DNA of 63,285 bases, counting the filler, from Pseudovirgaria hyperparasitica (lineage: Eukaryota): NCBI GenBank assembly GCA_010093815.1. It is 3 parts of 3 records of this genome, joined end to end, with 100 filler letters (N's around TTAATTAATTAA, not from the genome) between each part and the next. Parts side by side here need not be neighbours in the genome. Positions count along the whole stretch, not along the records: positions 23,467 to 44,501 come from ML996584.1; positions 44,602 to 63,285 come from ML996586.1; 1 more part is not named here. One strand, 5' to 3'. The notes beneath the pieces are model-generated. The model was not told where the DNA came from and ran no database searches. It saw only the letters and a list, made by a program, of their open reading frames with translations. The translations under genes and the position numbers were made by a program. Positions 29,040 through 61,707 of the stretch are shown here, piece after piece (within the stretch, counting starts at the first letter, position 1; each line of letters opens with the position of its first letter).

Positions 29040-32000
29040 CTATATAGAAAAGCTAGAGCTATAGAGCTACTCCTCTATCTTATTATTACTTTTAGAGTAT
29101 AGTAAATAAACTAGCTAAGTAATAGAGTAGTATAGATTAGATATCTTATCCTCTAGAGTAGCTACTTAATTAACTAGAGTCTAGTAAGAGAAGGACTACG
29201 CGCTAGAATAGAGTAACTAGATCTAAAGTTAGCTAATATAATCTAGAATAATCTAAAATAGAATATATACTCTCTTATAAGATAACTTAGAGGGAGAACT
29301 AGTAGATCTCTTATAAGATCTATTAGTAGTATAAGGTAGACGGAAAGAGATACCCTAAATCTCTTCTATAGCCTTAGTAGTTAAAACTAACTCCCTAGAG
29401 TAGGTAGTCTAGATACTAGGGATCTTATAATAACTAAAAAATATAAGCTAAGGCTAGAAGTAACTAATAGTTTCTAAACTTATACTTTAATAATCTCTAG
29501 AAAGAGCTTATAGCGCTCTCTAAATTCTTTATATATAGAGGGTAAGTAACTACTAAGACTACTAAGGGTCTTATAGACGCGAAGGCTATTATATATATTC
29601 TATATATAAATAGAAACCTAAAAACGTATTAGTATAGATAACTTTAGATTATCTAAGACTAAAATAGTCTAATAGACTTATCTAAAGATAAGCCTTACTA
29701 AAGATAGTATAATAATAATAATAATATTAGTAAACTAGGTAGAGTACCACTCTATAGGTGCATGCCTCCTCTAGTCTAAGCTACTATATAAGAAGAAACC
29801 TACGAATAGGAAAAACTCCCTTATATCCATAACTACGCTCTGTCTATCCTCTCGTTCTTTATATATATATAGCCCTAGGGGCTACCCATAGGCCTATAGC
29901 CTATGTTATAATGGTTTGCCCTTAGGTAGCACGTGTAGATGCGGAGATTATTAGTTAAGGGCTGCCCTTAACTAATAATCGCGGTTCTCCCGGGGTTCTT
30001 CCGACGTATACCGGGGTTCTTCCGGCATATATTAGGCTTCTTCTAGCATATATACGCGGGTCTACTAGAACTAGGGGAGAGGAAGGTATGCGAGCATCTA
30101 TCGGGCGACGTCCTTAGGGTACTTATTAAGCCATCGCGTAATGTCGGAGGTCCTCGTTATACGGACGAGGGCTTGTCTTAGGGTATAGAGGCTAGAGCAC
30201 GTCGCGAGGTAGTAGCGTATTATGCCTCTCCGGCCGTAGTCCTCGTACTAGGGAGATACATCTAGGACGCCTCTCTAGTAGAGGTAATGTAGGAGACCTA
30301 TGGCGCCTGTTCGGGCTTAGAGGAGTATAGATGCTTAGGCCTTCGTTAGCCCTTTATATATCTATTTACTCGGTTCCTTCTAAGGCCCTCGGATCTATTC
30401 TAGATATCTATCCTATTAGGAGGCCCACTAGGCTTTAAGTACCTTCCTCTATTTATTCTAGATTCACGACCGCATGACGCGGCTAAGCTCCTTAGAGCTC
30501 TATTAGCTCGGGACGGCATCTAGGTTATTTCGAACCTCCTACACGGTCTAGCTTAAGTCCGCCTCTATATGGTATTTATATTATACTCGAGTTTATCCTA
30601 TAGTAGGGAGGGCCTAGTAATGCGCGCGGATACGTATACATAGTACGGCGAAGGTATATACCCTATCTCCTCCACGTTCTTATACTTATTATTTAGTAAA
30701 GTATATAAGTCTCTATATCTAGTAGAAGTCCTATATACTCGTTACGTTTATCTCGCGTCGGAGGAGCGTCGTGTTAGTAGCTTTATATACGCCGGAGATA
30801 AGGCGGAGTATACGGTTTTATATAGACTTAAGCTTTGCCCGCCAAGCTTGTATAAGGGCCGTGTACTAGTACTCGTGTCCGTATATAAAGGCTAGGCGTG
30901 CTAGGGAGACGTATAGCTGTCTCGCCTTATCCCGGGCTATTCCCCACGTGGATACCGTAATCCGGTATATAGTAGTTTCTATCTAGAGGGCTCTGGAGAC
31001 GGCGTGTGCCACCTATAGTCTCTATTTTAGCTTATTATCGATTATGACGCCGAGTGCGCGTATGCTCTATGCTAGTAGTTCTATAAAGGCGTCGATTTAG
31101 GGGCGACGTGCCCCCTCCCTAGTAGCCTATCCTCTATAGCAGTTAATAAAGTATATAAGCTAGTATTTTTTAGGTGCGAATTTTGCTCCGTGGCGCTTTA
31201 CCTACTAGACGCATTTCTCGTGGTCTCGTTCGAGTCGTATGCATGTTCTACTAGTACTACTATCGACCGCGAGGAGGTATGTATCGTCCGCGTATCCGAC
31301 TACCTCTATGTATTCTATTCTCTAAAGGAGGTCTACTATAAAGAAGAGGAAGAGGATCGGGGAGATGGTACTCCCTTACGGGATGCCGTATACCGTCTCC
31401 TTATATTCGCTTCGGTATCCGGGGATATATATTTAAGTAGTCCTTTACGCGAGGAAGGACTATATAAATCATGTAATCTACTTAGGTATTCGCCTTATCC
31501 GGAGGTTGTGGATAAGTCTTATATGGTTTACCTTATTAAACGCCTCTACTATGTCTAGGGAGAGTAGCGTAACGACTCGTCCTTATTTCTATGTAGTCTA
31601 GATAACCTCGAGAATATGTTAAATAGCTGTGATTAGGGAGCTTCCTATCTTCGCCTTCTGGTTTGCTAGGAGAAGGCCGTGTACCTATACTACTATACTT
31701 ATCTTCTTAGTAATCGTGGCTTCTAGTACCTTACCAAGGTAGGAGAGGAGGGCGATTGGCCTCCATCCCTTCGGCGTGTTTAGGCTCTTCCCTAGTTTTA
31801 GGAGTATAACCGTGTATACGGTTCGGAAGCTCTATAGGTGGTATCCTATACGGGCGTACGCTCGGAATATATGGCCTATAATCGGTAAGGTCGCCTATAT
31901 AGTCCTCTTAAGGCATCGATTCGGAATTCTATCTAGCCCGGGCGCTTTATCGTTCGGGAGTGTCTTAATGGCGCCAAGTATATCGTCGTCCGTGATTTCC

Positions 32001-35000
32001 CTAGGGATACTCACGGCTTCCGGGTATTCCGTGCCGTCGATATCTAATAGATCTACGGGTTCTAGGAGAGGGAACATAACCTCTTATAGGATCTCTATTT
32101 TCTCGAGGCTCGTAGAGTACGTCTTTTCTTAATGTATAAGGGGAGGTATAAGTGGTGTAGGTGTCGGGGAGGCGGTGCTTTTGGCCCATTTTACCATATA
32201 CCATAGTCTAGTAGTATTACGTGTGTGTCTGTCCGTGACTATACGCTACTATTTACGTCGCTCGTTACGGAGGACCTTATCTCGTTATCTTCTCGCCTCT
32301 CTCTATTTATTCTATGCTTTAGGTGTACGGTTATAGTATACGCGTATATATAATCTCCGGACTTCTCGCCTATGCTCTCGCACTTAAGGTATGCTTTTTA
32401 GGTCTAGGGGTCTATATATTCGGTACGGCACGTGTTTATCTCTTGCTCCCTAGTACGCCTATAGGAGTATATTCACGGCCTAGTCGATGGCCGGGCCATT
32501 AGATACATTAACTATAGACGGGTCTAGGATCGTCGATTCCAGGTCCTTTAGGTACTTTTCCTAGTTAGTGTCCTTCTATAGCTATTGCCCTCGTTAGTCT
32601 TAAGGGGTAGATACGTCTATTACGGTCTCTATATATTCGTGGTCGGAGTCTATCTATATAAGGCTTAGGCGGTAGTATTAAGTCCTATTATAAATGTGTC
32701 TAGTGGCTAGGGTAAGGTCGAGTATAGATCCGCCCTTATCTTATTTATGTTTTCGCTAGGTAATCTATTCTACTAGTATAAGAAGGTATAGAAAGTAGTA
32801 GTATTAGGTGCGTAGTTCTCTAGCTCGAAGCTCTTCGCGGGTGACGGTTAGTCCACCCTACTAGCTATAATAGAGGTTAAAGTCTCCTAGGAGGATGTGT
32901 TATCCTAGCTCGGTAGTACCCTTAAGTATATTATCCGCCTAAAGTAATCGGTTCTAATTATATATGTTATATATATAGAGGGGTCCGATATTTATCTAGA
33001 GGTGTAGTGTTATCCAGAGGTTATCCCGTTTAGTATATAACTATAATAAGAGTAGAATAGACTTATGGACATGGAAGAGGACTCTCCTCTCCGGTCCTAG
33101 GGGGTGTATTATATAATATTCTAGGTGTGTTATTGGTTTGTTCGTCTAGTAGTGTTTATATAGCTCCTATATAGCGAGTATTATAGCTCCGGTCTCCTCG
33201 AGGAGTATCGCCTAGTTCTTATGTTTATACTATACGTTTGCCTATATAATTAGGAGTGTATCTTAGTCTCTTATTAGGTGCTAGGGAATGTATAGGCCTG
33301 TATATTCGTTCCTCTAAGACGCGACTATCCTCGTGCGGCGGCGGCCTTAGTAATTCCTCGGGGCCGTCCTATTATTAGCTTTCTCGGGACGGTTTACCAT
33401 TCCTAACCGCTTCCTCGTAAGGAGGTAGTCTATAGTAGTAGTGTTATAGTAAAGAGAGGAACGGTAGTAGGTCGCATCGTTTATAGCTACCTTGCTCCCT
33501 TTATCCGGATTAAGTAGATATATTTAGTAACCTATTTGCGTTTCGCGCACGTAGCCGACTACGACGGGTGCTTACCGTCGTAGTTAGAGTACTTCGCCGT
33601 GTCCCTATCCCTCTAGCCCTCTCCTCGTGTCCTATAGGGGCACTTCTAGGTACTATGTTCTTATCGACACTACCTACACCTAGTCTTTTAGAAGTACCGC
33701 TATACCGTATACCCGTATCTCTAATAGTTAAAGCACTATATTATCGCCTATACTCTATTCTATAGTTCCGCTATAAGAAGCTCCCCTTCCGCTAGGAATC
33801 CCTCTTACGTAATTTAATACGCGAGGGCGGGGTCCTTAAGCTCCACTATTATAGTAGAGTATGCCTTCGATCTGGTTTTAATCCCTTATATATTCTTCCA
33901 CCATACTCTTACGATCTTAATCTCTAGGTATTTTCGCTCGTTTAACTATTCTATCCGCGTGATATTCTCTTCTCCGATAACCTATCCGCTTACGGGCATA
34001 GAGTATATCTATATCGGGTATGTGGCCGCCCTAATAGAGGCGCCTAGAAAGATACTACTAATCGCGTTCGGATCGCGTAAGATAGTCTACTACGCGATAT
34101 TCGTTGTCGTAGTAAGTACTACTCCTCCTAGCGTAAGTTTGGCAGCGACGACGTTTAACTACATTCCCTTTTATTCGTTAATCTTACTTACTATGTCCTT
34201 TAGGGATACTTACTAGACCTATACTAGGGTGTCCTTATCCTAGATTACGACGCGTATACTATACGCCGCGTCGCCGGTCCGGGGGGCCCGTGGTATAGCC
34301 TCTAGTATTACTACTATTTATGCCTATATGCTAGGGCGCTTACCTTAAGTAAGTTCCTCCTGGATTCTACGTAGGCTAGCCTCCATTCGGTCGAGCCTAC
34401 CCTCCGGTCCTCCTAGTTATATCTTCTTCTCCTCCTCCGTAATTCCCTTTAGGTTCCGGATAAGGTCCTAGAATACATGTAGGAGAGTCTTCTAGCCCTC
34501 TCCGGCTTCCTTCTCTACACGTACTACCTGGTAGTCGATACAATCTAGGAGGGTTTCCCCTCTCGGGGTCCCCTTTATTCCGTCTATCTATGGCGGCGTG
34601 CGCCTTTAGGTATGTTCTACGTTTTGGATAGGTATATAGCTGCCCTCGGTAATGTCGCTATATGGCCTTTTCTATCGTACCGGTAGGGGTATATCTAGTA
34701 TATACCGGGGTATGTCGGTGCCTAAGGCCGCCATATTTATTAGTCAAGGGCTACCCTTAACTAATAAAAAGGGGGTCGGTATATTAGCGTTCTAGTAGCG
34801 TAGTCCGTGCCTCTGTCTCCGTGAGGATTTTAAGAGGGTATATATATATCTTTATACGGCGATAACGTCTTGGTTTCGACGCTACACGTACGTGCGTATA
34901 GTAGTAGTTGGTGTACTCGGTGTACTCTATCGATTAAGGTGTGTATCTCGCTGTATTACCCCAAATGGACTAAGTTAGCCTCTTAGGGATGTAAAAGAAG

Positions 35001-35683
35001 TTTTGTAGACTAAAGATAGTATAGTAATAGTAGTAAGTAGATAGCTTAAAGACTAGATATATAGGCCTATTACGGTTAGTAGAGTAGTAGCTAATACTAG
35101 AGTTAGAGTAGAAGAGATATTTAGAGCCGGCCGTATAGCTCTTAATATACTTAAAGTATATTAAACTATAGTTCGCTATTTTTCTATAGTATAAACTATA
35201 ACTACGTTTAGTATCTTTAGTAATCTAGACCTTATTATTAGAAGGGCTAGACTTAGAGTAAATAGTAAGGTTCTAGAAGAACCTAGAGTAACTAAATTAG
35301 TCTATATTAGACTAAAGAGAGAGACGGCGTTTAGAGTAGGGCGGCGAGAGTATAGGCTCTTAATTATTATCTATAATAAGATCTTCTTTATCCTCTAAAG
35401 AAGGTAAAGTAGATAGATAGTATAAGAAAGTATAAGTAGACTTTATAGCCGCTTCTTCTATAACGCTAGTACTAGAATTATCTAGATTAGAGCGACTAGT
35501 AGCTATATTAGTAGTAATAGTAGTAGTAGCCTTAGCTACCCTTCTCTATAACTTAGTATACTCCTTTATACTACTATAATAAGTAGTCTTCTTAGCCGGT
35601 ATAGATAGAGTAGAGGTAACCCCTTTAGAGTAAGTCTTATAAGAAGAGAAGATAGACTTAGAAATAGAACTAGTATTAGATAT
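29040..35683 (-). pseudogene. Gypsy-B antisense spliced accessory gene (Zn2Cys6-like motif, C-terminal coiled-coil), split by LINE-4
   Basis: Exons 35683-35009 + 29696-29682, 29617-29484, 29433-29271, 29216 to about 29040 (end uncertain). Introns of 64, 50 and 54 nt with (R)CTAAY-type branch sites and TAG acceptors, all phases consistent. Extra 5' UTR intron GTAAGT 35869-35684. Confidence 0.72.
29712..35008 (-). mobile_element. LINE-4: full-length Tad1-like LINE (more GC-rich, divergent subfamily)
   Basis: 15-bp TSD ACTAAAGATAGTATA at 29697-29711 and 35009-35023. ORF-track 31895-32077 gives KAPGLDRIPN (LINE RT N-terminus). GYADD at ~31225-31240 (minus). Confidence 0.93.
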
Positions 35684-36769
35684 CTATATATATATATTAG
35701 CTAGAGATCTAAGAATAAAATATTTATCCCTTAAGAGTAATTAGAAAAGCTAAATTAGTAACTATAATAACGCGAATAGATTATATAAGACTAGTTCTAA
35801 TAAGAATAGACTACTCTAAACCCGAATAGACCTAAACTAGAGAAGATAGTATAGAAATTAATAACTTACCTTAAGAGTAAGGTAGATATACTAAAGAAAA
35901 AAATTTAGAATAAGAGAACTAAATATAAGCTTAGTTAATATAGTAGTTATATAACTATAGAGCTATCTCTAAGGTAGTAGCTAGAAAGTAAGAGATAAGC
36001 GTATATATAAGTTAATAAAAGTAAACTAGAGACTTAAGTTTACTAAGGTAAAGGCTATTAATAATATTATAAAGATTTAATTAGATATATATATAAATAT
36101 AATACTTATAAGATTATAGATTTATATATAGTTAAGTACTTTAGAGCGAAGTATAAAAAGAAGAAGAATATTATTAGAATAGATACTAGAATAGACTTAA
36201 CTAGACTACTATAGTCTAGTATAGTCCTATAATAGATAGACCTAGGTTAAGTTAGCTAGATTAAGCGAAACTACTATATAAGTAGACTATATATACTTAA
36301 TTCCTACTCTTTAGGAATTAACCTTATTATAAGAGTAGACTATCCTTTTAAATATATTTCTAAATCCTTCTATAATCTATTAGACTACTATCTTATATCT
36401 ATATTCCTATAATAGATGTGACTAAGGTGTTACTATAATAGTAATTAGAATATATTATAATTTAACTTAGAGAGAGTAGGGGTGGCTCGTATAGGTTATA
36501 GCTTAAGTATAGTCTTAAGCGAGATCACGTGATACCCCTATACTAGTCTCTATCCGTCCCGGCTCCGTTATATAACGCTAGAGATAAGGTAAAGCCGAAG
36601 TCCATAATATACTCTTATTCTCTAGGGTTATCTTAGGGACCGGCTTAGTATTTCATATAATAATAACCGGCTCGGTTAGGTCTTAGGTTTACGGTCTTTA
36701 TATCGTACTATATAATAGTAGTAGGGCTATATATTACGTCCGGTAAGATGGCCGTATCCTATAGTCGTG

Positions 36770-37150
36770 TCTCGGTCGTGTAATAGAGGAGGGTTCCTCT
36801 ATAACGGCGTCGTTAGTCATATAATCGCACGGTAGTAGCACCTCGTGGTTACGTCCTAGCGGTTACGTGGTAGAGGAAGGTTCCTTATATTATAGCGTCG
36901 TTAGTTATATAATCGCATGGTAGTAGTATCTCGTAGTTATATTCTAGCGGTCACGTAGCGGAGAAGGGTTCCTTACCTTACGGCGTCGTTAGTCATGTAA
37001 TCGCACTATAGTAGTATCTTATAGTTGCGTCCTAGCGGTCACGTAGCGAAGGTAGATTCCTTATACTACGGCGTTATTAGTTATATAATTACACGGTAGT
37101 AGCATCTTATAGTCGCGTTCTAGCGGTCACGTAGCGGAGGTAGGGTATCC
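36770..37150. repeat. Tandem array of about 4.3 x 87-88 bp inside gypsy C
   Basis: TTCC anchor recurs at 36794, 36881, 36969 and 37057, with CGGCGTCGTTAGTCAT and AGCGGTCACGTAGCGG motifs. Confidence 0.92.
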
Positions 37151-37155
37151 TACGC

Positions 37156-37303
37156 ACGAACCGCGCGTCTTATTTATTATTATCTATTTTAGAACCGGTT
37201 CTTCTCCGGGCCAGGGGTTAGATAGTAGTAGTAGGGTAGCTTACGTACGACCCGCGTTTATTATTATTATTATCTATTTTAGAACCGGCTCTACCCCGGC
37301 CCA
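37156..37303. repeat. Two copies of a ~58-bp repeat (period ~90) in gypsy C
   Basis: ACGA.CCGCG...TTATTATCTATTTTAGAACCGG at ~37156 and ~37247. Confidence 0.8.
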
Positions 37304-37424
37304 CACGATTTTCCCCAATACGAGTATATAGGTTCTACGTCTAGCGACTTTCTTCTTCTTTAACTACTATTATACCTACTATCTCGATACCGCGTAGTAG
37401 CTACTACGATATTAGTAAACTCGT

Positions 37425-39000
37425 ATACCACCTCGTAGCTTCTATACTATTATTATAAGCGCGCTAGGCCTAAATAGGCCCATTATAGAAGCCGGCGCCG
37501 TCTTAGCGGTGGCTATAGATGCTAGGGGTTAAGACCCTAATAATCGACGCGCGCCTAGGCGCTAGGAACCGCCTAACCGCACCGTGAGTAGGTCCTATCC
37601 CTATACCGTTCCTTATACTAACTAGGTAGATTATTCCTCCTACCGTCTCCCGATAGGCTAAGCCTATTTACTATATAGAGCTATATATTATAGAGGGTAA
37701 CTCGTTAGAAAACGAGCGTACCAAGTCCGTATACTTCGTATATTATATATATATAAAGGCCCTAGAGAAGACTAGGGTACTTAAGTACGTGCCGTCTCTA
37801 CACTATGGTAGCGCCTACTAATCTAGAGCGTAGCTATAAGCCTAGCCGTAGTACTAACTATATAAAGTACTATACGTCGAAAGGGATCTACTTATAGGAT
37901 ACTAAGGAGCTCGCTATGTACCCGGCCCTACGTAAGGCGTAGAGCCGCCTTAAGAAGTTCGTGCACGAGTTAGTTAATAATAACTTTAGTTATATAATAG
38001 ACCGTGGTAGTCGCGGCCTAGACCCGACTAAGCCTTCATCCGGTAAGTAGCCGTGTATAAACTCTAAGTTCTACCGTCTATACGAGGACTATAAGTCTAA
38101 CTTAGAGATTATATATATCGTCCGCCGTAACGCTAGCATCGTTAGTTAGATCCCTATAACGCCTAATCGCGGTGCTATCACGGTAATTAAGACGCTATAT
38201 CGTGGTAGTAGTAACCGTAGGTAGCTTAGTAGTGTAATTCACTAGATGAATTAGTATATATCGTATAACGAGGCCTAAATAGGCGAGTTACGCACTAACA
38301 TCGGCGCCCTATAGATATATACTTAGTTAGCCTAATTACTACTATCTTAACACGTAACGTAGGGTTCGATATAGTAGGTCGCTTCCGGCCTAGCACGCCT
38401 AGCCGAGCCGCCGCCTTACTAACTCCTTATCTAGGCGGTTATAGAGGAGGAGGAGCCTCGTTTAAGTAGTAGTCGCCCGCGCCGTCCTTAGCTAAGCGGC
38501 CCTAAGGAGTCGCCCACCCGTAGCCCGCGCTATTACTATACTACCCCCCGCCGGCTCCCTATTACTCCCCCCCCGTAGGAGGCCTTACCGTTACCACGCC
38601 GTCTCTATACCCCGCCCCGCCGCTATAACCTATCCCGGCGCCGCTCTCGCTCGCCGGAGCGCCGTAGCCGGTCCCCCGACCGCCGCGACCGGTCCCCTTA
38701 CCGCTATAACTAGTCCCCCCGCTACTATAACCATTCCTATAAGCGTTACCGCCGATCCCGTAACCGCCGGCGTCATACTATTAAGGGTCGTCGCTTATTA
38801 TATTATTACCGGTCGCCGTCTCGTAGCCGCTATAGCCGCCCTAATAAGGTATATAACTCCCTCTCGCCGCTAAGCTAGATTAATAGTCGCCCCCGCTACT
38901 AGGAGCCGGCCTAGGGGAGAACTAGATAACTAACCTTATAGTTAGGATTTATAGTTAAGGACCGTGCCGGCCCCGGCGCCGTATAGACCTAGGGTAGAGC
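37425..39000 (+). pseudogene. Gypsy-C antisense spliced accessory gene (Zn2Cys6-like motif + Arg/Ser-Pro-rich tail)
   Basis: ATA(ATG)-PPR start. Exons 37425-37583, 37630-37784 and 37834 to about 39000. Introns GTGAGT..TACTAAC..TAG and GTACGT..TACTAAT..TAG, phases consistent. RRSRSPERRSRSPDRRDRSP at ~38636-38700. Confidence 0.8.
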
Positions 39001-42000
39001 TAGAAGAATAACCTTTTTATGTCTTAAGGAGGGTGTCGGTTTATTATTAGGTTACTTAGGTACTTAGCGTTTAGCGTTTAGTCTTTATAGAATCTCTACT
39101 CTTATATCGGGTTATTAGGGCCGCTATAGGCCCGTAATAGTAGATTAATATCTTTATTTAGGGATACGCTAAAGTCGTAGGCCGTTATATAATCGCGCGC
39201 TACTATACCGGGCCTTAAACCTATCTAGTGCCTCGGTATTCTCCATGTCCTTAAGTGGTACCTATATTAGCTATAGCCAGCCCTTCTATTTTATAAGTAC
39301 TTGCCTCTTATTTCGCCTATATGCGTTTTTCGCCTAAAGGATATTCTTAACCTCGTATTTAGTAACGTCCTCGTCGGCTTCGTTAAGTTCGAGTACCGGG
39401 CCTAGACGAGTATCTAGCTACTCCTAGCTAGGTAGGGGGTCCTCTACGGCGCGCTCGACTAGGCTAATATAGACCATCTTATAAAGGTCCCCGGAGAGGT
39501 CGAGGGTTACTATTAGGGGGGTAGATTAGGTAAGAACCCTATACTTAGCCTATAGCTAGTCGAGTTTCCGGCTTAGGCGATTAGTCTTTACGTTTCGGAG
39601 TAAGAACCATACTATATTACTAATCTTAAAGCGTTTAGCTAGGCGGCGTAACCGGTTAGCCGAGTCCTAGAAATGTTACTCGGTCTAGGCGATAGCCGTC
39701 TACGCTAGGGTAGTACCGTCGTAGAGGTACTTAAGGAAGTTTATAGCCCGGCCTTTCGCCGAGGTCGTAGAGGTATTAGAGAGTGGCCGTCGCGGTAATA
39801 GTTTAATATAGTATCTATTTAGAAGTAGATTCGGTGCTATACCGGTTACTAACGAGGTGCGGTTATTTAGGGCGAGCTAGCATGCTAGTAGGTACTCCGG
39901 CTAATTAGTTTACTCGAAGGTTACTATAACGCGAAGTACCGCCTAGACCTTCTAGTTTACTCGCTCTATACTACCGTCGGTCTACGGATAGTAGACCGTA
40001 GAGAGGTCCTAGTACACGTCCGTTATAGAGTAAAGGGTTATCTAGAACTACCCTAGCTAGTCCGAGCCCCGGTCGGTAATAATAGACTATAGAAACCCCT
40101 AGAAACGCTACTATATATCGCGGAATCGCGCCGCGTAGTCCTTAGCCACTATAGAGGTTATCGCCTCTAGCTAGATGAATTTTAAGAGCCGATCCGTAAT
40201 AACGAGTAGATACCGGGGCCGTAACGGGTCCGATTAGGGAAGGTCGGTTATAAAGTCTATAGAAATCTAGGACTAGAAACGGTCTAGTATCGGAAGCGGC
40301 TAGAGGAGCCTAGGGGCCTTACGCCGATTTATATAAGCTCCGTAGTAGTTATAGTTCCGTATAAATCGCCGGATATTAGCCTATATATACTTCTAGTAGT
40401 ATTCCCGCCGGATAGCTACATATATCTTATTCTTACTAGGGTAGCCCACGAGGGGGGAAGCGTAGGACCTCTAGATAATAGTTATTATAAGCGGTTCCCA
40501 TTCGGGTACCTAGATAACTCCCCGCCATATAAGTATCCCGTATACTAATATAGTATAGTCCGTAACCTATTTAGTCGTAAGCACCTCCGGTAGAAAGAGG
40601 TATACCCCGTCTACTACGGCCGTATAGCGGATCTAATACGCCGGGACGGACTAAGCGGCTTAGTCCTAAAGCTCCTAGAGGTAGAGATCGGTAAAGATAC
40701 TTTATCCCTATAGAAGGCGATCCTTCCCGGAGTAGATACTTATAGATACTATTTAGATAGCTCGCGAGGCTATAAGCGACCCCTATAGAAGGGACTTCTT
40801 AGACGAGTCCTAGTTACGGCGGCTAAGGGCGTCCGGGCGAGCCGCCTAGGATCCCGGCCGGTATACTAGGTCGTAGTTAAAGAGTATAAGCTAGTTAGAC
40901 TATCGCTACTACCGCGGGACGAGAAGATAAGACTTAGTAAAGTACTTAAGGTTCTTATAGTCTATATAGATCGTGAAAGGGTAGTAAACGCTCCGGAGCT
41001 CGGGTTCCTATATCTAGAGGTACTAAACTACGGTAAGGAGCTCCTTATCATAGATTATATAGTTCCGTTAGGCGGCCGTAAGGGCCGCAGAGTAGTAGGC
41101 TATCGGGTGCTAAATACCCCGAACCCTCTAGAATAGGCACCCACCCGTCGCGTGGCTAGAGTAATCCGCCTTAACTATTATATCGCGCGTCTCGTCCTAG
41201 GATTAGAGAATAGGTCCTATAATAAAAGTATTCTTAAGCTTAGTAAACGCGCGGTCCTCGGTTAGGCCCTAGTAGAAGGCCGCCCCGGCCCTAGTAAGGG
41301 CGTAGAGCGGGGCCGCTACGGTGGAGAAGTCGGGAAGAAAGTTACGGTAGAAGTTTATAAATCTAATAAATCGCTAGACGCCCCGGACCGTAGTCGGGGG
41401 CTTCTAGTCCTAGATCGCGGTAATTTTCTCCGGGTTAGGGCGGATTAATTTACTAGCGGTAATAACGTACCCTAGGTACCGGACTTCCTTAGTAGCGAAG
41501 CGGCACTTAGTAAGGTTATAGTAAAGGTCCGCTTTAGTAAGGAGAGATAGAATAGTCTTTACGGCGGCCTAGTGGTCCTCTAGCGTACCCGGGGTATAGA
41601 TAAGGATATCGTTAAGATACGCTATATAGGTTACCCCTAGGACCCCACTTAGTACCCCATTAATATAGCGCTAGAAGGAGGCTAGAGCACTAGAGAGACT
41701 AAACGGAAGCACGGTCTATTTAAAGAGGCCGAACCGGGTACGGAAAGCCGTCTTATGTTCGTCGCCGGCGGCCACCCGTAGTTTATAGAATGCCACCCGA
41801 ATATCGACCTTACTAAACCATAACGCGTTACTAATAGTATATAGGGTTTCGCGTATTAGAGGAAGCGGGTATCAATCCTACTCCGTAATACCGTTAAGGG
41901 CTCTATAGTTAATATATAGCCGCTATTTCCCTCCCGGCTTAGGGACGAGTAATACTAGCGCCCTAGCCGTAGAGGAGCTAGCCCGTATCTAACCCTTATC

Positions 42001-44406
42001 TATAAGATCCGTAAGCTAGCGGCGTAGCTCTACTAGCTACTCCCGAGATATAGCGTAGAGGGGTCCCTAAGGGAGGTTTACTAGGGTCCCCGCCGGGGTA
42101 GACTTAATATAGATATAGTAGTTAGTGCTCCTCTAGTAGGGGGGTAGCGCTAACGCCTTCGCCTTATCGAAGAGGTCGCGGTAGGCGTGTAGCTTTAATA
42201 GGAGCGGGCGCCTATCCTCCGTAAGCTCGGACGCGTCCTAGTCGGGTATTAGAGGTGGCGGGGGGAGTATAAGCTATAGAAGGCGGGTGACATCGCGGAT
42301 GCTAGTAGCGACCACCCGTCCACGGCGATAAGCCGTCTCTAGAGCCCCTATAATACGACCCTTCTCGGTAAGCACCCGAATGCGCGTTAGGCGTATATAG
42401 ATGTTTATATCCTAGGCTATAAGGCCGTAGGCGCGGTAGAGCGTAATCTCGTCTACCCGTATATTAATAACGGCGCCGGCCTAGTAGAGCCACGGGCTCC
42501 TAAGAATAAGATCCCGGTCTAGCCCGGGCACCACGTAGGCGGAGAGGCGCTATCTCTATCTAGTAATATCGTACCATATAGTAACGACTTCCGTAATCTC
42601 CGGTCCCGACGCTCCGTTAGCGGTAAGAGCTACTCGACGACGTAGGACTAAGATACGCGACTTAGCTACGTCCCCCGTAAGGGATAGGCTAACTACCGCG
42701 AAATACTCGCACCCTATATCTACTAAGGCGTCTATATACTTCCTATCCTAGAGGAATAGCGATATAACGGGTGGCGGCCCGTCTATAACCCGAGCGGGTA
42801 CGCTATCCTCCGGGTCGGAGCCGTAATCTTAGTCGCCTATAGCTTTATTCCCTACTAAATATTATAACGTCCCCCAACCCGGGCTATAGTAAGGGACTAT
42901 ACTTCCCCCGCCTCGGAGTCGGAATTAGTATTATTCTAGGCCGGGGCCGCGACCTTAAGCGCCTGTATATTAACGGCGTTTAGGTAGCCCCGTTATTAGT
43001 AGCTAGCCTAGCTACACCGGGTATACACGCCCGCTATATAGCGCTCCTAGAATAAATCCTTCGGAATCCACGAAGGAGGCTCTTTCTTCTTAACCCCGTT
43101 CTTACTCTTCGCCGCTAGTAAGGTAGCTCGCTCCTTACCCTTTATCTTAACGGCCTTAATAGTAACCGCTAACATCGTCGTATCGCCGTCCTTATCCTTA
43201 CCCGGCTTGCTTTAGGGCGCCGTGTTTTACCTAGTACGGAGCCGGAATAACTCTATATCTATGCCGATATCTCTAAGGCGGCCTACTACGGCCTCGTATT
43301 AGTCCGGGAGGCCCTAGTTTAGGGCTACTACCCGGGTCTTCTAGTTAAGGCCGTCCCGGAGCCGTATAAGCTTCTAGTCGTCGGCCTAGTATATTCCCCT
43401 AGCCTCCTAGAGGGCGGTATAGAACTAGACGAAGTAATCTATAAACAGCTCCTTAGCCTTTTATACGATTATATTTAGCCGTTAAAGGGCCCGCTCTTTA
43501 GTATATATATCTCCGAACTAGAACTTAAGGTAGTCTAGGAACGCGTATAGGTTCTAGTTACCGTTTAGCCCCCTAGTAGAATATACCACGCTAACCCCCT
43601 TCTATACCTTAGGCGCTAGGTTAGCCTAGATAAGGGCTATCTAGTCCCTATAGGTGCTAATAAACTCGGCGTCCCGGGTAATCTTATACTATATTATAAC
43701 GGACCACGTATAGAAGAGAGTCTTAGACCCGTTATACGGATCGCCGAGGGGGAGAGACTTCCGTTTTATAGGCCGGTCAAGTATAATATACGGGGCCGAT
43801 AGTAGTAAAGTAGGGGCGTGTATAGATAGGGCCGGGTCGGGCCTATATAGGCGCTAAGGTATAGCTAAGGAGGGGTCGGGCTAGGGTAGGGACGAATCCC
43901 TATAGGTTAACGTGGTAGGAGTACGGCTATATACTTCGACCGTAACTAGGCGGGCGTTAATATACTATAGCGCCGTATAGACGCTCTACTTAATATTAGA
44001 TATACGAGACTCGCTTACCGCTTAGACGGCCGTAATAGACTTATATACGGCCTATATTTCGTCTTAGAAGCTAAGGAAGGAGTTAGAGAGTTACCGTATT
44101 AGATTAGAGTCTTACGGGTTAAGACTATCTTATACTATAAGACCACGTATAGGAAGAGGTTAATAAAGTTAAATTAATATAATGGATGTGACTAAGGTGT
44201 TACTATAATAGTAATTAGAATATATTATAATTTAACTTAGAGAGAGTAGGGGTAGCTCGTATAGGTTATAGCTTAAGTATAGTCTTAAGCGAGGTCACGT
44301 GATACCCCTATACTAGTCTCTATCCGTCCTAGCTCTATTATATAACGCTAGAGACAAGGTAAAGCCAAAGTCTATAACAATTCCTTATATAAGTAGATTA
44401 TAGTAG

Positions 44407-44501
<95 letters not shown>
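44407..44501. repeat. (ATT)n microsatellite at the contig end
   Basis: About 95 nt of perfect ATT running into the gap. Confidence 0.9.
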
Positions 44502-52075: not shown

Positions 52076-52187
52076 TAGTATATGATTAGACTTACGTGTT
52101 AGGGCTACTTAGTTATAGCTTCTTAGTAAGTATACCTCTATATCTATTTTAGATATAGTTATAACATTCTACTAGATAGATAGTTTA

Positions 52188-52813
52188 TGTTAGGCACGTG
52201 AGGAGCACGTGGCCTACTAGTTAATTCTACATGTGTGTAGTAGTTGTATATAAGTAGTATACTCTACCCTTAAAGTAGTAGCTTTAAGATTCGGTCCTTT
52301 TAGTATAGTTAGTTAGTGCGTAGAGCCCGCCTCCTTATATAATCTTAAAGCTACTATAGGGTTACGGGTTTAACTCTTAGTCTAGTTAACCGTTATTAAA
52401 TTTCGCACGATTCCGTTTAGCTTACTACGTCACGTGTACTTTATATACGTAATAGATAACATGGTAGTAACGTTACTACGGTGAGTTAGCGTGTCTAGTA
52501 CTAGAGGCGGCATTACGAATATCGATTATATGCATATGGTTTATGCTAGGCCTAGTGTGGCTAGCGCGTATACTAGGCCCGTTACGGCTAGTTTAGTTTA
52601 TCTTTCGTAAGGTAGCATGCCTATAACGCGTAAGGACACGCGCCTTTAAGAAGGGAGATAATATTAGGTACGTAAGGAGCACGTGGCCTACTAGTTAATT
52701 CTATATATGTGTAGTAGTCGTATATAAGTAGTGTGCTCTACCCTTGAAGCAGTAGCTTCAAGATTCGGTCCTTTTAGTATAGTTGGTTGGTGCGTAGAGC
52801 CCGCCTCCTTATA
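52188..52813 (+). mobile_element. TRIM-like non-autonomous LTR element (626 bp)
   Basis: 152-bp direct LTRs (52188-52339, 52662-52813), TSD GTTTA, 322-nt non-coding interior, PPT AAGAAGGGAGA, PBS complementary to its own LTR. Confidence 0.93.
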
Positions 52814-54012: not shown

Positions 54013-54130
54013 ATAACCTTATAATCCCCGTCTATTATAACCTTATAATCTCTATCTATCGCGATCTTATAACCTCTATCTATTATAACCTTATAGCTCT
54101 TATATACTACGACCTTATAGTCTATACTTA
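54013..54130. repeat. 24-bp tandem repeat, about 5 copies
   Basis: ATAACCTTATAATCYCYRTCTATT units; reads as IDxDYKVI repeats on the minus strand. Confidence 0.8.
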
Positions 54131-55274
54131 TAGCGGTTCTATAGCCTACTAACATATATACTATAAGAAAAATTAAATTTATAATTAGGTTTAACGATAA
54201 TATATTTCTTAAAATACTAGTATCTATATCTAACTAGTAGAAAGATTATAGTAACGCTTCGTGTATTAATTTAGTAGTATTTATATAGTAAATTAGGGTC
54301 TAATATATAATAAAGACTAGAAGGGCACTTAACTAGAGCCGTACTACTATATATTCTATTATACTACTAGTTAAGTATACGATAAGTAAAACGGAACTAG
54401 AGATAGATATTAGATAGCTTCTATAGTTAGTAATTAAACGTGTCCTAGAATATAGTAATAGTATAATACTCCTTAGCCTTAGATAGGATATAGATAGTAT
54501 ACCCAAAGTAAAATAAAATATAAACTAGCAACTAATATATAATAGTATAGACGGCTATATATAGATTATACTTAAATAAATCCGCCCCTCTATCCCTAAT
54601 ACTATACTTACTATAACTAGTATAATAGTAGTAATAGAAAGCTACTATCTATAACGGTAGAGATACCTATAGAGATAGTATTATAGGTAGTAGATAGTAT
54701 TACCTAAACAACTCGACCCTTCCTCTAGCGATACTATATATACTACTATTAGTACCTAGAAAGCCGCGAGACCAATCTATAAGCTCTAAAGATAGTAACT
54801 TTAAAAGCCTTAGAAGTACCTTAGTTATAGATAATATAGATCTTAATTATAAAGAGTAATAGAATAATAAAAAGGGTACTAGGGGTAGTAAGAGTAGCGC
54901 GCGTATTTAGCTAAGGTAATATGATACCGATATAAGATAGGTTCTATCTATAGTATATTAGTATATACCCGATTCTACTAGCTATATAACCGTAGCGCGT
55001 ATATTTAATTAAGACATTAATATACTAGTATAAGCCGGCGTCTATGTTAGGACTTAGCCTTAGGCAGGACCCGACCTACACGTACCTTAGCTAACAGGGT
55101 TAGGAGGTGACGTGAAGGGCGGTAAACAGTCACGTGCTAGATAGATCGGCGTCCCTTTGTATATATACTCTCGGATTCCTACCGAAAGGGTTCGGTAGTA
55201 ATTCGTTCTATAATAGAATACACCCCATTATTCCATCTAGCTATACTACTATCTAACTACCCTATTCTTACATT

Positions 55275-55283
55275 CGAATTACT
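55275..55283 (+). promoter_or_regulatory. Self-priming primer binding site of gypsy A
   Basis: CGAATTACT is complementary to AGTAATTCG (55197-55205) in the LTR, about 30 nt downstream of a TATA-like box (~55160). Confidence 0.65.
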
Positions 55284-58200
55284 CCCCATATAGTACTATA
55301 GTCAAGATGGTCTAACTAGAACCAAGAAGGTCGACACGATCCACTATAGGGACAAGTAACACTACATTAAACAATAGGGATCCTCTATAATTAGTATTAA
55401 ATCCGGCCGTTCTTAATAGAGAAGTGGAGATGTCCGACCGAATCACGGAACTTTCTAATAAGGAAATGGTAGATATACTAAGCGACTTCCTACGATAGGA
55501 AGCTAGACAACGAGTCGTGGTAGAGCTATACAAGGAATCGCAACCATCAATCGCCGAACTATAGGAGTATATCGCTAATCAAGCCCGAGAGATATAGATC
55601 CTTAAAGAATAGACTAAACGTGCGAAACTCCTCGCAAAACAACGAGAACTTGACGAGTCTCTTAAAAGACTATACGGAACGATAGTAGGTGGACGACTTC
55701 CTACACCAATTCAGGCGGAATTAGTTCACCTACCATTAGAGTTACGATAATCCACTGTACACCCAGCCGCTTCGTTGCCGATTTACCCTACTCCCTCCTT
55801 AGGTATACCGAAACCTAAAGATCCGACCATATTTATAGGGAAGAACCAAAAGGAGTAGAAAGATTGGAAGAGAGACTGCGAGAAGTACTTCCTCGATAAC
55901 CCTATACTCTTTTCTACCAAAGTATAACGCATTTCATTCGGAGAACGTTACTTAGGTTTACAATCCCGCGATCAATAGGATAGATAGAAAGAAGCCAAGC
56001 CACTATCGGCGATAACCTGGGAGCATTTAGCTATATTTATACTAAATACCCTCGGAACTAACGGAGAACGCGAAAGAAAGGCACTATCTAAGTTAAGAAG
56101 CGTGGCATAACGACCGAGCTAGACACCTACTTAACTACTACAATACCTATAAAACCTCTAGGATAATATCCCTACACTATAGGAAAATATTCGCATATTC
56201 TAGTTTCGCGAAGCACTACTCCCGTTAATCCACGAAAGATTAGAAATAGCATTATTAAGTTTTAACCATCTACACGAATTAGAGGAGAAAGCTAATAAAC
56301 ACTACCGTATCCTTAAGGAACGCGGCTCTCTAGGTAAAACCGACGAACCCTACACGGGTTAGAAACGAGGTCGATCGAATACGTTCGATTAAGAGTAACC
56401 TTACCGCGATTAATACTAGAAGAGCGTAAATTAGGGTAGAAACGCGTTAAGAGGACACCGAAACAATCGAGGCGGTGGTTCCTAACACGGAAAAGGATAA
56501 GGTATAGGCTTAAATGTAACGCCTATCGTAAAACAGTAGGATTATAGCGCACTTTATTACTATAAGTATGGAGAAAAGAGATATATTTCACCTAACTATA
56601 AGAATCCGAAAAAAGAATAGGCTAGTACGCGAGACCTAACCGCGTTCTTAGCTAAATTATATATACTTAGGAGGAGCCGCAGCGCCTTCCGGCGAGTAAA
56701 GACCTAATATTACTAAAAGTATTATTACCCATAGTAAATAGTAATAAAACTATATAGGCCCTCGTGGATACTAGTATAGAAGATAACTATATTTCGTCGA
56801 TTCTCGCTAAGGAGTATAGATTATCGTACGATCTCGGTAAAGTTAGCCGAACCATCGTAGTTAATGGACATGAAGTTAGAACTTTAGGTAAAACTATAAC
56901 GAATTACGAAGTTCATGACTTAAAGATAATAAAATAGTAGATGTCTAATGAATTTATCGTGGCTAATATTAGCTAATAGAATATGATTCTAGGGATACCT
57001 TAGCTTAAACGCCTAAACCCAATCCTTGATTTTTAGAAGGAGACATTGATGTTCCGTCGACATCGCGGTAAATTATACTAGTAAGTCGCAACCATTAGTA
57101 AGGAGGCATGGAACCTCGCTATGCGGACCCGATCATCGCTAATCTACCTTATATCCCTATCGATCGTCGATAAAGACGAAGAGAATAGTAATAATCGGGG
57201 TAAAGACACGCTACCCGACGTATATTCGTAGTATACGGATATGTTTTCGGTAGGAGACGCGTTACTCCTCCCTAACTATAGGCCGTATAAGCTAAAGATC
57301 GAGCTCGAAGAGGGAGTAGACGTCCCTTATAGTCTACTTTACCTACTTTTAAGACTAGAACTTAAAGTTCTTTATAAATATATTAAAGAATATCTCGGAA
57401 GAGGCTAGATACGTCGTAGTACGTTATTAGCCGGCGTATCTATTCTCTTCGTGAAGAAGAAAGACGGAAGTTTACGTCTATGCGTTAACTATTAAGCACT
57501 AAATGCGGTGACTAAGAAGAATCGTCACCTATTACCGTTAGTTAGTGAATCTTTAGACTAATTAACGAAGGCAAAGTACTTTACGAAGCTAGATTTACGA
57601 GATATATATTACCGGCTTCGAATCCGTCGTGGAGATAAGTGGAAAACCGCATTTCGGACTAGATATGGTCATTTTAAGTATACTATTGTGCCGTTTAGGC
57701 TAATAAATGCGCTAGGAGCGTTCTAAGGATATATTAATACTATACTTATAGGATTACTTAATGTGATCTACGTAGTTTACCTCGATGACATACTAATTTA
57801 CTCTAATAGCATGTAGAATCACGAAGAACACGTGAAATCGGTGCTAAATCGTTTAAGATAGTATAAACTCTACGCAAAGTTATCTAAATGTAAGTTTCAC
57901 TAATAAGAAGTTGGGTTTCTCGGCTTTATTATGACACACGGCGGCCTTAAAATGGAGCCAGAGCGTGTTAAGACCATTATGGAATGGCTAGAACCTACTA
58001 CTATACGTTAAATCAGGACGTTCATAGGTTTCGTGAACTATTATCGTAAATTCATTATAGGTTTCTTACGAATTGCGGCGCCGCTTAATAAACTCATAGA
58101 GAATGGCGGTAAAATCCCTATAGGTGGGCGAGCATAGCGCAAAGCTAAGTCGGTCGAGATATAGTTAACGCCGGAAGCGCGAGATACGTTCCGATCGTTA

Positions 58201-60725
58201 AAGAATTGCTTTATAACTACGCCGATTCTTAGGTATTTCGATCCCGAGAAGCATATTTAGGTCGAAATAGACGCATCTAGATTCGTAATTACTAGAATCA
58301 TTAGTTAACCGTATAAAGATGCGAAAGACAAGGTATAATGGCACCCGGTCGCCTTCTTTTCCCGTAAAATGGCGGATATAGAGACGCGTTATAACACGCA
58401 CGACTAGGAACTACTCGTAATTATCGAGAGTTTTAAGTAATGGCGATATTATTTAGAAGGCTCCGTATATTAGATTGAATTATTATCGGATTACGTAAAT
58501 CTACGTTACTTTATATCGACTAAGGTCCTTAATCGCTAATAAGTACGTTAGGCTAAGTAGATGTTAATATTTAACTTTAAAATCTTATATAAAGCTAGAA
58601 GAGAGAATAAAGTAGATCCTCTATCACGGCGTGAAGATTACGAGAAATCGTCGTAGAATAACGTAGATAGTCGGTGTAATTTAGACTATGCTATACTATA
58701 GATACTAAAAGACTAGTTATCTAATAGAGTGCCGGAAGCCAGGATACTTTCGGCGACTCTCCGCGGGAATTAGAGCGGGTATTAAGTAATCTAAACTAAC
58801 GTCTAAGAAACAGAGCAAATCCTCGAAGACTTAATTAAATCTACCTAGAATTCTAATACATTAGTAAAGAAAGTCATAAGCATGAAGGGAATGGCTATAG
58901 AACCGCCGTGGTTATTAAGGTAGGAACGACGATCGGACGCGATCTACTTCTAAGGCCGACTCTACGTGCCGGAGGGCGGCTTACGAATCGATGTTTTAAG
59001 GGAATAGCACGATTACGTATTAGTAGGATACTTCGGCGTTATAAGGACGGTCGATTTAATCCGAAGAACGTACGACTAGCTAGGTCTTTATAAGTATATA
59101 AAGGACTACGTAAAAACGTGTAATGTTTACCAGCATACGAAAGTGTATAGACACTTACCATATAGCGAATTAAGGCTATTGCCTGTGCTAAATAAGGCAT
59201 GGAAAGAATTGTTAATGGATTTTATCATAGATCTACCCCTAAGTAAGTGTCTTAGGCATGTTTATAATAGTTTACTCGTAGTTCTAGATAGATTTATAAA
59301 GATATTATACTACATCCCTATAAGGAAGATAATCCAAGCACCGGATCTTATAGATATACTACTTCGTGACGTAGTTCGGCTCCACGGTATACCGAACGGT
59401 ATAGTTTCGGATAGAGGTCCGTAGATAACGTCCAAGTTTTAGAAGGATTTCTACTATACGCTGGGAATTAAGCGGAAACTTAGCACCGCGTTCCACCTAT
59501 AAACAGATAGGTAGATAGAGCGGTAGAATTAGATAGTTAAGGCGTATTTACGCGTATATTACAACTATAAGTAAGATAACTAGGTAAGGTTAGTCTATGT
59601 CGCGGAATTCGCGTATAATAATAGCCGACATGCGTTAACCCACGTAAGTCCGTTCGAAGTAAACTTCGGTCGAAACCATAAAGTGTAGTTTATAGGAACT
59701 TAGTACAAATTAGAGTAGCCTAACGTTAAGGCGACGGAGATTACGATAGAACTATTCTAAACGTAAAGAAGCGTTATAAAGTTATTATAAGATACTATAG
59801 ATTATAGTAAATCGCACTATAATAAGGGTAGAAAGCCCATGATCTTTAATGTTAGAGATAAAGTTTTACTAAATAGTAAGAATATTCGTAGTATCAGGCC
59901 GAAGAAGAAGCTTAACTATACGATAATAGGTCCATTTAAGGTTACTCGTGTAATTAATGACCAGGCGTATAAGTTAAAACTCCCTCCCACGTTAAAGATA
60001 TACAATATATTCCATATCACGCTTCTCGAGCCATTCCATGCCTTATCGTTACCGGATCGTTCCGAACAGACGTTATATAAAGTAGTTACGTAAGGAGGTG
60101 CGGATATCTATAAAGTTAAGTAGATACTAGGCTAATAACGTGCCGAAGATGGTACGTGGCTATATAAAATTCATTAGAAAGGGTATAATCCTAACGAAGA
60201 TACTTGGGAACCCGTAATATACATTAGTAAAGCAGCGATATTAGCGTATAAGTAGCGATTAGTAAAGGAAGCCGCGGAATCGTAGAGAATTATACTAAAG
60301 TACGGCGATTCGACGTTTTTTAGTATAGTTCGGCGCCGAGGACGGCCGCCTAAAAGGAAGAAGGTGAAAGAGACATAGATCTTTAAAACATTCCAAGGAA
60401 TTAAGGAACTTCCTTAGAAAGTTCGAACTCAGAACTTCAAAAAAAATTAACTAAAAAAGAGACTTAGAAAAATGATTCACTAAGAGAAATAGACATCGAA
60501 AATCGGTATAGATCGGTATAGATTACTAAAGAGATTAAAGAAGTTATTATTAAAGAAAGATGAAATTAAGAAAGCTAAAAGAAAATATAAAGATCTATAT
60601 AGACCTATGTAAACTCGTACTAATCTATCTAGAAGAAGTAAGATCGCTTTAAAATTAAAACCGAAAAAACCAAAACGCCAGATAAAAGAGACATATTAGC
60701 ACCGATTGGTGTAGATCTAAACCGA

Positions 60726-61707
60726 TCAAGTCGGAGTAGGAGTAGAAGTACTAATTACCGCGATGGTTACATCCAATTCCTTCTGCTGGTTCTTATTTAG
60801 CATAGTATAGAGCTTTATGACATAAGTCTCTAGCCTTTCATTCCAACGCTATAAATTCTATATAGCGCGCCTTATAGCTATGAACTCCTCTATAGAAACC
60901 TACGGAGCGGCGGAACCCGGGACGGAGAGGGACGGACCGGCGCGGGCATGCTAAGAATTATATAAATCAGCGAAAAGATTCAACGATCGGTATAGAACTA
61001 TATACCGTTAGTGTAGAAACTTCTAGATTAGAGCCATCTTCCCTAAATTTACGGCTCTTTAGCACGCGCGAGGAAGGAACCTTAGCCTTTTTACTAGAAC
61101 CTTTTCTAGGAATTTTAATATCGCTGGTATATAGAAAGAAGTCCGAAGTAGTAGAGATTTTAGCACTATTATAGAGATTAATATATATTAGTAAGAATCT
61201 ATAACGATTTAAGAAAAACGATATTACCTAGTAATCGCGGTAATAATAGCTATAGTAGATTCCGATAAACCCTTGCGGATCTTATTAGAATCATACTCCT
61301 AGGCGTAACCCTTGCCTTAGGTATATAGCTCGTAGAAAGCCTTCTCTAAGGCGTTGCGATCGGTAGTACCACGCTCCTTATCGGTAGGGGTTACTAGAGG
61401 CCTAGTAGTAATCTATACCGATATAAGTAAATCTACGTAAAGTTCTTCGAACTTACTTAAATACCTATAAGTAATAATGCTTCTTAGTTATGTAAGTACC
61501 GTATATTATAGATTTAGTACTACCGTGAGCAATGTACGACGGAAAGCGATAACCATAATAATATATGGCTAGATTATTAGAGCCCGGCCTAGGTCGGGGT
61601 AGATCGATGGCTTTCGACATGTCGGTGACGTATACGAGATAGGGATTATTCGAAGGCGCCTGTTTCCGCGCTAATTGCTTTAGAGCGTCGAGATTTCGGG
61701 AAACTAT
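60726..61707 (-). pseudogene. Gypsy-A antisense four-exon accessory gene (~270 aa; Zn2Cys6-like motif, C-terminal coiled-coil)
   Basis: Exons 61707-61465, 61412-61228, 61165-61006 and 60950-60726. GT-AG introns of 52, 62 and 55 nt in phases 0/2/0. Internal stops are only RIP-type TAA/TAG; terminal TGA. Confidence 0.82.

Follow-up and report, generated by a model that had tools for sequence, protein, structure and literature searches.

The window analysed here, a stretch of 63,285 nt from Pseudovirgaria hyperparasitica (assembly GCA_010093815.1) joined from parts of three records, holds members of three Ty3/gypsy retrotransposon families (A, B and C). The spacers separating pol from the 3' long terminal repeat (LTR) in A and C, and probably also in B, are with moderate confidence interpreted as the remains of an accessory gene that encoded a six-cysteine zinc cluster on the strand opposite to pol and was killed by repeat-induced point mutation (RIP). 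As intact relatives carry such a gene in the same place, the spacers of the window probably once held it, too. The trace is clearest in C, moderate in A and weak or ambiguous in B, and the copies in the window are dead and non-functional. The idea goes back to a sequence-only reading, according to which one tyrosine pattern per spacer represents a RIP-converted cysteine cluster; on translation, all three patterns are present in their places and on the strand opposite to pol. For the clade as a whole the notion of an antisense zinc-cluster gene proved largely right, and for C and A it is probably right.

Antisense Six-Cysteine Genes in Intact Relatives

Scanning metagenome contigs with the pol alignment yielded 79 loci, to which a viral collection added three without a cluster (82 in total). 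At many of the metagenome loci, antisense open reading frames (ORFs) of 86–402 residues plus introns lie right after pol. The half motif C-x2-C-x6-C was found there 22 times in antisense orientation within 63.8 kb, compared to 4 times in sense orientation within the same 63.8 kb; the remaining 880 kb contain it 47 times. Searching all frames of the 82 loci for the complete six-Cys pattern resulted in 16 matches, of which 11 are antisense and located 260–1117 nt after pol, while three of the other five belong to loci without a pol end in the script used and two are found elsewhere. These intact genes beside gypsy pol, where the sequence-only reading had suggested searching for homologues, show canonical introns. 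Among the 38 loci with at least 1 kb of sequence after pol, a narrow-spaced full cluster is present in antisense orientation at seven and in sense orientation at none; L002, L006, L026 and L045 add four wide-spaced antisense clusters, giving a total of at least 11 of 38. No full cluster is seen at 27 of these evaluable loci, and in L077 and L078 an LTR follows pol at once.

Because the gene is antisense to the element RNA, introns can persist in it. In L024, a 57-nt intron (GTAAGT..GCTAAC..CAG) is found on the antisense strand just before the first Cys codon, likewise in L072, and in L043 an antisense intron separates the two cluster halves, with splicing restoring a spacing of 2-6-11-2-6. The gene is part of the element, as it is placed between pol and the 3' LTR in L028, and several contigs represent single-unit circular permutations comprising gag, pol and the antisense gene. 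The spacers of A and C occupy the same place within their elements, from pol to the 3' LTR, by which an antisense ORF (aORF) of an LTR retrotransposon is defined. Antisense ORFs at L050 and L004 were excluded, as they turned out to be flanking DNA transposases. The claim of an antisense, intron-bearing six-Cys gene between pol and 3' LTR can thus be upheld for the intact relatives, not for the window taken by itself.

Zn(II)2Cys6 clusters coordinate a pair of zinc ions and bind to DNA containing CGG triplets. The corresponding Pfam family Zn_clus (PF00172) is characterized by C-x2-C-x6-C-x5-12-C-x2-C-x6-8-C and two short helices, each starting from a CxxC, with a gathering threshold of 21 bits. 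Ten clusters of type I from the relatives align with six invariant Cys residues, mostly at a spacing of 2-6-(8 to 14)-2-(6 or 7), L024, L036, L067 and L070 being among those with canonical spacing. Departures are seen in the first half of L023 (first loop of 8 residues) and L007 and in the middle loop of L014 (14 residues). Comparison of the type I profile with PDB sequences gave 11 matches at E up to 10, of which nine are Zn2Cys6 domains, with AlcR as best match (0.012) besides Pho7, an S. pombe factor, LAC9, LEU3 (twice), PPR1 and PUT3 (twice). Zn_clus is also the top weak Pfam match in four of the 12 type I ORFs and a lower weak match in a fifth, all of them staying below the threshold (best 14.6 bits, E 0.036).

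Structure prediction points in the same direction. The AlphaFold model of the type I domain shows a predicted local distance difference test score (pLDDT) of 75–82 over residues 1–40 and helices at 6–11 and 28–33. With this model as query, Foldseek yielded 29 matches when E values up to 10 were admitted; among the 23 listed, every match except the last contains Zn2Cys6 (22 matches, including Leu3, Pho7, PUT3, HAP1, GAL4, PPR1, LAC9, AlcR and CBF3), the best E being 0.099 at a probability of 0.97–0.98 and a root-mean-square deviation of 1.7–2.6 Å for the best ones. A model of the whole L024 second exon reached a pLDDT of only 53–60 in the cluster, and the domain-only model was used instead. The longer model predicts a long helix (about 53 residues, 100–152, with a pLDDT of about 95) that stands between two disordered parts, a basic stretch before it and an acidic tail after it. 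The predicted type I layout, i.e., cluster, basic stretch, long helix and acidic tail, is that of GAL4-type activators. None of the 298 relatives of the L024 exon-2 protein is named. The nearest Atlas clusters are from Basidiomycota, one auto-named Zn(2)-C6 protein with a score of 0.89 being a lead only.

A second, wide-spaced type is represented by L001, L002, L006, L008, L026 and L045, in which C-x2-C and C-x2-C-x5-7-C are separated by a long, variable stretch that includes one Cys. Its clusters in L002, L006, L026 and L045 lie 0.9–1.1 kb after pol, and at five of the six loci (L001, L002, L006, L008 and L026) the 5' splice site is found exactly two codons past the sixth Cys. As judged from their spacing, it is this type to which the patterns of the window belong.

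Probable Traces of the Gene in the Window

The window can be described as a graveyard of RIP-mutated transposons, AT-rich and TpA-rich as is typical of RIP-mutated fungal repeats. Elements were mapped by a transition-blind repeat search, and pol limits were set by a 1236-position pol profile derived from 12 database relatives. In all three elements, pol comprises reverse transcriptase (RT), RNase H, integrase and a C-terminal chromodomain (that of C recognized by eye), the set by which chromoviral Ty3/gypsy elements are recognized. The RIP index amounts to 0.41–0.50 in A1, the less mutated of two A copies, 0.14–0.19 in C and 0.00–0.07 in B, and because of these values missing Cys codons in B and C are uninformative.

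The clearest trace is the candidate cluster of C1. Its spacing of 2-11-7-2-6, already noted in the sequence-only reading, is identical to that of the intact relative L006 and one residue off that of L008. The first cluster codon is TGC (37790–37792), a Cys codon that has survived, fitting the RIP index of C and disproving the former statement that no such codon is left. When the spacings of 12 intact relatives were compared with the six frames of the window, allowing Cys or Tyr and no stops, exactly one match was obtained. This is the C1 site, and it falls in antisense spacer sequence, which makes up 7% of the strand-specific window sequence.

In A1, the end motifs of the candidate cluster resemble those of L002 and L001, the two loci matching A best in pol. 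The first Tyr pair follows Asn-Asn-Pro as in L002, and the score of 44 for the Y-to-C recoded alignment with this locus was reached by only 5 of 500 shuffles. Moreover, GT directly follows the terminal Y-x2-Y-x6-Y-Leu-TAG, and L001 and L002 end alike with Cys and a splice site. The candidate intron beginning here would connect this frame in phase with another one that is fairly open, and it takes the position of the 5' splice sites of L001, L002, L006, L008 and L026. The C pattern lies in a single frame and needs no intron. In the candidate second-exon frame, 20 stops were counted in 347 codons over 60760–61803, and a search for a homologue of this exon found none.

The A spacer is retained throughout a very abundant family. 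In public contig runs (X1 and X2, DNA contigs; X3 and X4, of unspecified kind), 11862 pieces of family A are found in X1, and thousands of pieces cover the spacer as they cover pol. Families B and C are each represented by a single copy in the window. A comparison of the two window copies revealed 327 sites where A1 has kept G/C and A2 has A/T, the reverse being the case at 22 sites.

A half motif [C/Y]-x2-[C/Y]-x6-[C/Y] followed by Leu-TAG occurs at four sites in the six frames of the window, one each in A1, A2, B and C1, and all four are antisense within spacers at 1.1–1.24 kb after pol.

Alternative Readings of the Spacers

Several results weigh against a former six-Cys gene in the spacers and have to be set against these traces. 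Pfam searches of the six spacer frames (with X at stops) found only the Chromo domain of A, and Zn_clus was not matched at E up to 1. The cluster hidden Markov model (HMM) of type I detected nothing in the window, and after Y-to-C recoding all scores were negative and the top matches scattered. The most open A antisense frame (P0001, 16 stops in 348 codons) had no relative in a word-index search and no homologue among 1.84 billion representatives by HMMER, compared to an E of 1.9e-272 for the equally RIPped pol. When the spacers of A, B and C were translated, they matched neither each other nor any of the 79 metagenome loci, so that the supposed sharing of one module by the three families finds no counterpart in detectable similarity; the A spacer also resembles nothing else in the window. 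The stop density of the best antisense frame is weakly low in A (P 0.037, the region being chosen post hoc) and like that of shuffles in C, and with 16–28 stops the antisense frames of the window exceed shuffles in openness weakly at best.

The patterns themselves also depart from the canonical one. Scanning the window spacers for canonical Zn2Cys6 spacing with Cys or Tyr gave nothing genuine. In place of the 6 residues of this family, the window patterns have 11–23, with 2-11-7-2-6 in C and a longer or arbitrary first loop in A and B. For the window, membership in Zn2Cys6 is thus unsupported: the spacings do not fit, and Pfam, HMM and homology searches gave no significant signal for it. The spacings read from A and B had been picked from Tyr-rich stretches (counted by eye, 12 of 57 residues are Tyr in A and 10 of 38 in B). 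The wide-spaced type, to which the patterns of the window would belong, has no profile or Pfam link to Zn2Cys6: Zn_clus was not matched in its six relatives, no Zn2Cys6 match appeared in the PDB profile search, and against the type I profile an 11-column half motif was all that aligned, at a probability of 6.7%, leaving the assignment of both types to one family unsupported. An Atlas search with L002 gave no usable match.

Further points concern the single elements. The recoded alignment of A with L001 is not significant, as 58 of 500 shuffles reach its score. As A1 retains three of five conserved pol Cys residues (by eye), Tyr at all six cluster positions is unlikely in A (about 0.004 to 0.05). 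Among the 40 rows listed, out of 242, in the variant table of the contigs, none of the six A1 cluster positions appears. The Leu-stop motif was defined after A and C had been seen, the B site being the only independent test of it, and B is ambiguous, its motif being derived from a run of five Tyr codons.

The most serious competitor, which we nevertheless regard as unlikely, is that the spacers have always been non-coding, for instance a long 3' untranslated region with polypurine tract and tandem repeats, that their Tyr patterns arose by chance through RIP, and that A, B and C never possessed the gene. RIP creates Tyr codons from Cys, His and TA-rich sequence, and Tyr amounts to 9.5% in the six-frame composition compared to 0.6% for Cys. 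In line with this, the half motif without the Leu-stop is not enriched in the spacers (0.4–1.4 per kb versus 0.77 in the whole window), and the canonical spacing seen in one A2 pattern has proved to be an artefact of RIP, since Arg and His stand at two of the six positions in the less mutated A1. The near-random stop densities, the missing Pfam, HMM and homology signals and the many relatives without a full cluster, as given above, would be accounted for as well. However, the C spacing is that of L006, occurs only once in the window and includes a surviving TGC; the four Leu-TAG sites are without exception antisense in spacers and at like distance from pol; the motifs and intron position of A are those of its two nearest loci; and the A spacer has been conserved across a very abundant family.

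Another accessory function, either an unrelated antisense ORF or a regulatory non-coding transcript that is antisense or gives rise to small RNAs, appears improbable. Proposals of the latter kind exist for some plant elements and for those regions of Botrytis gypsy elements from which small RNAs originate. Antisense non-coding transcripts and control by double-stranded RNA are discussed for such regions in the accessible part of PMC7264820, and BcGypsy retrotransposons are described, in that of PMC8365987, as yielding small RNAs and carrying additional ORFs. The C spacer, moreover, has an 88-bp tandem repeat (4 to 5.5 copies, 36785–37292) just inside the 3' LTR of C1 and a region of low complexity that holds a 125-aa ORF (38496–38873), and past the cluster no relationship is seen between the sequences of A, C and the relatives. 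Such a function would leave the matches in Cys spacing and intron position unexplained, though, and runs X3 and X4 hold almost only LTR sequence of A, plus traces at 61865–62219 and 60760–60907. Pure chance as the origin of all three patterns is weakened by the Leu-TAG sites, the antisense clusters of the relatives, the splice-site position and the agreement of C with L006.

Proposed Function and Comparison with Known Systems

If the spacers are remains of an antisense zinc-cluster gene, it would have lain on the opposite strand, running from the vicinity of the 3' LTR to near the end of pol, and would have encoded a small six-Cys zinc-cluster protein. Considering the predicted domain layout of type I, from which alone this step is derived, the protein may represent an element-encoded nuclear and probably dimeric DNA-binding activator. 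It could then act on the LTR of its own element by promoting transcription or by counteracting silencing. As a tentative extension, for which we see a fair chance yet short of an even one, a broad fungal clade of chromoviruses, including Basidiomycota-like elements as well as those of RIP-bearing hosts, might encode its own antisense, intron-containing GAL4-type activator near the 3' LTR that binds the LTR for activation or de-silencing, and the window would then preserve three independent fossil lineages of it.

The type I clusters are comparable to those of GAL4, PPR1, PUT3, LEU3, HAP1, AlcR and Pho7 in having C-x2-C-x6-C-x8-14-C-x2-C-x6-7-C, in the predicted fold and in the profile matches. 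Unlike these Zn(II)2Cys6 factors, they are borne by retrotransposons and belong to short proteins (ORFs of about 200–400 residues), and a Fungal_trans domain is not among the domains reported for them. A viral case of antisense coding is also instructive: the antisense product HBZ of human T-cell leukemia virus (HTLV) type 1 is a bZIP factor. In HTLV, expression of the regulatory product starts from an antisense promoter within the 3' LTR or close to it, as described in the accessible part of PMC7264820, although an animal retrovirus and an unrelated protein are concerned.

Closest in host and arrangement is brtn, the extra antisense gene of the Boty-like gypsy element from Botrytis cinerea (Zhao et al., 2011, Virology 417:248), which is compared here solely by the description given in the accessible parts of the citing papers (PMC7264820, PMC8365987, PMC4227169). 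According to these, it is likewise found in a fungal gypsy element with a CHROMO-domain gag-pol, on the opposite strand in the interval from pol to the 3' LTR, and in Sclerotinia too; it may belong to the same gene family. The same place and orientation are reported for gene23 of maize Grande and for the corresponding genes of rice RIRE2, Silene Retand and bean PvRetro13, which are kept in most copies (PMC7264820, accessible part, also for the following). The gene23 product has been located to the nucleus, and a regulatory role has been proposed for it without proof. In Retand, an amplified tandem repeat is indicated by the title of a reference cited there, as is observed here for C. These aORFs differ in being from plant hosts, and the part accessible describes neither protein similarity nor a zinc cluster. 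The functions of antisense extra genes in LTR retrotransposons are called unknown in the same source.

The antisense extra gene itself is already known from plants and Boty, and it is its reading as a zinc-cluster gene that appears new: in full-text literature, no paper was found that connects an antisense gene of retrotransposons with a zinc or binuclear cluster, brtn being covered through citing papers only. With a small zinc-cluster protein of GAL4-type layout, the extra gene of many fungal chromoviruses would acquire a testable function, namely that of an element-encoded transcription factor, and, if true, this would be a retrotransposon counterpart of the retroviral trans-activators. Besides, genes erased by RIP may become recognizable by patterns of codon positions once intact relatives provide the template.

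Structure of the Elements and Further Observations

The positions of the elements and of the candidate gene parts are compiled in the table. The spacers comprise 1826 nt in A, about 2.4–2.5 kb in C and about 2.6 kb in B (up to the start of C1). A region of 1.8–2.5 kb between pol and 3' LTR, as previously assigned to all three families, is consequently found in A and C, the B spacer being split by a non-LTR retrotransposon (long interspersed nuclear element, LINE). The LTRs of A and C are unrelated to each other, in agreement with the sequence-only reading; those of B were looked for and not found in the window, and its part of that statement falls away.

Positions of elements, spacers and candidate gene parts in the window
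Feature	Position	Strand	Remarks
Gypsy A2, second, more heavily RIPped partial copy	19560–23366	–	motif at 20462–20500 (+)
Gypsy B pol (5'-truncated element)	24859–28434	+	profile positions 30–1215, E 5.9e-232
B spacer, part 1	28435–29708		1.27 kb
B motif Y-x2-Y-x6-Y-Leu-TAG	29682–29720	–	at LINE edge; within run of five Tyr codons
Nested LINE splitting the B spacer	29709–35008	–	RVT_1 E 1.5e-20, Exo_endo_phos_2 E 8e-6, one frame
B spacer, part 2	35037–36407		1.37 kb; Tyr pattern of sequence-only reading at 35087–35200 (–); RIP saturated, index 0.00
Gypsy C1 element	36408–44388	–	LTR pair
C1 3' LTR	36408–36758	–	matches 44174–44388 and inverted solo copy at 24087–24442
C1 candidate Cys cluster	37790–37897	+	one frame; TGC and five Tyr codons, 2-11-7-2-6, then Leu-TAG
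C1 candidate remaining antisense frame	37898–38990	+	Arg/Ser/Pro-rich low-complexity end facing pol end
C1 pol (RT to integrase)	39325–42192	–	profile to position 1171; chromodomain-like end near 39205 by eye
C1 5' LTR	44174–44388	–	repeat pair
Gypsy A1 element	55045–62420	+	LTR pair
A1 5' LTR	55045–55272	+	transition-blind repeat pair with 62193–62420
A1 pol	56695–60366	+	protease, RT, RNase H, integrase, chromodomain, terminal AT-hook
A1 spacer, pol to 3' LTR	60367–62192		1826 nt; conserved in copy A2
A1 candidate second exon	60740–61412	–	RIP-damaged frame; frame reading
A1 candidate GT..AG intron	61413–61464	–	52 nt; two codons past sixth cluster position; candidate from sequence
A1 candidate RIP-converted Cys cluster	61471–61641	–	begins NNP-Y-x2-Y, ends Y-x2-Y-x6-Y-Leu-TAG
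A1 3' LTR	62193–62420	+	repeat pair; purine-rich tract immediately upstream

A1 pol matches positions 12–1235 of the 1236-position profile with a score of 1286, its chromodomain being detected by Pfam (Chromo, E 7e-4), and its best database relative reaches the E value quoted above for pol. Directly after the chromodomain, an AT-hook-like basic motif that is conserved in the consensus of the 12 relatives ends pol (about 60330–60366), and a Lys-rich frame runs about 100 codons past it. Within the contig pieces, no GT..AG joint was seen in the A spacer, parts not covered being uninformative. Some family A copies in the public contigs are without 512 nt of the spacer (60568–61081); as the ends of this segment are AG..AC, it is not an intron. 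In others, the integrase region is joined directly to the LTR (59609–62195). Run X3 also includes a 2840-nt contig with a depth of 2603 that ends in a piece of the A LTR (62197–62326) joined to unlike sequence, and the fragment may belong to a transcript or locus that is strongly represented.

Family B had temporarily been taken for a LINE rather than a gypsy element, which was dropped because the LINE is nested inside the B spacer. It is flanked by an unusually long duplication of about 28 bp (29697–29724 and 35009–35036), and its upstream frame shows CCHC-like knuckles near 33724. More copies of this Tad-like family occur in the window at about 3.8–8.8, 10.4–13.2, 13.5–18.5 and 44.6–46.6 kb in both orientations, two copies being arranged head to head around 7358–10218. 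In the second part of the B spacer (35037–36400), stops are very unevenly distributed over the frames (49/93/40 on one strand and 29/37/73 on the other, P 0.003–0.007 versus shuffles), which hints at former coding sequence, though Pfam is null there.

Adjoining the 5' LTR of C1, (TAT)n extends over about 31 codons (44409–44501), and a partial LINE copy follows. Finally, CCCTAA, a repeat of telomere type, stands in an array of 15.8 perfect copies at 23467–23561, between the broken end of A2 (about 23366) and the inverted solo C LTR (24087–24442); this array could mark either a chromosome end that was healed or a join made during assembly.

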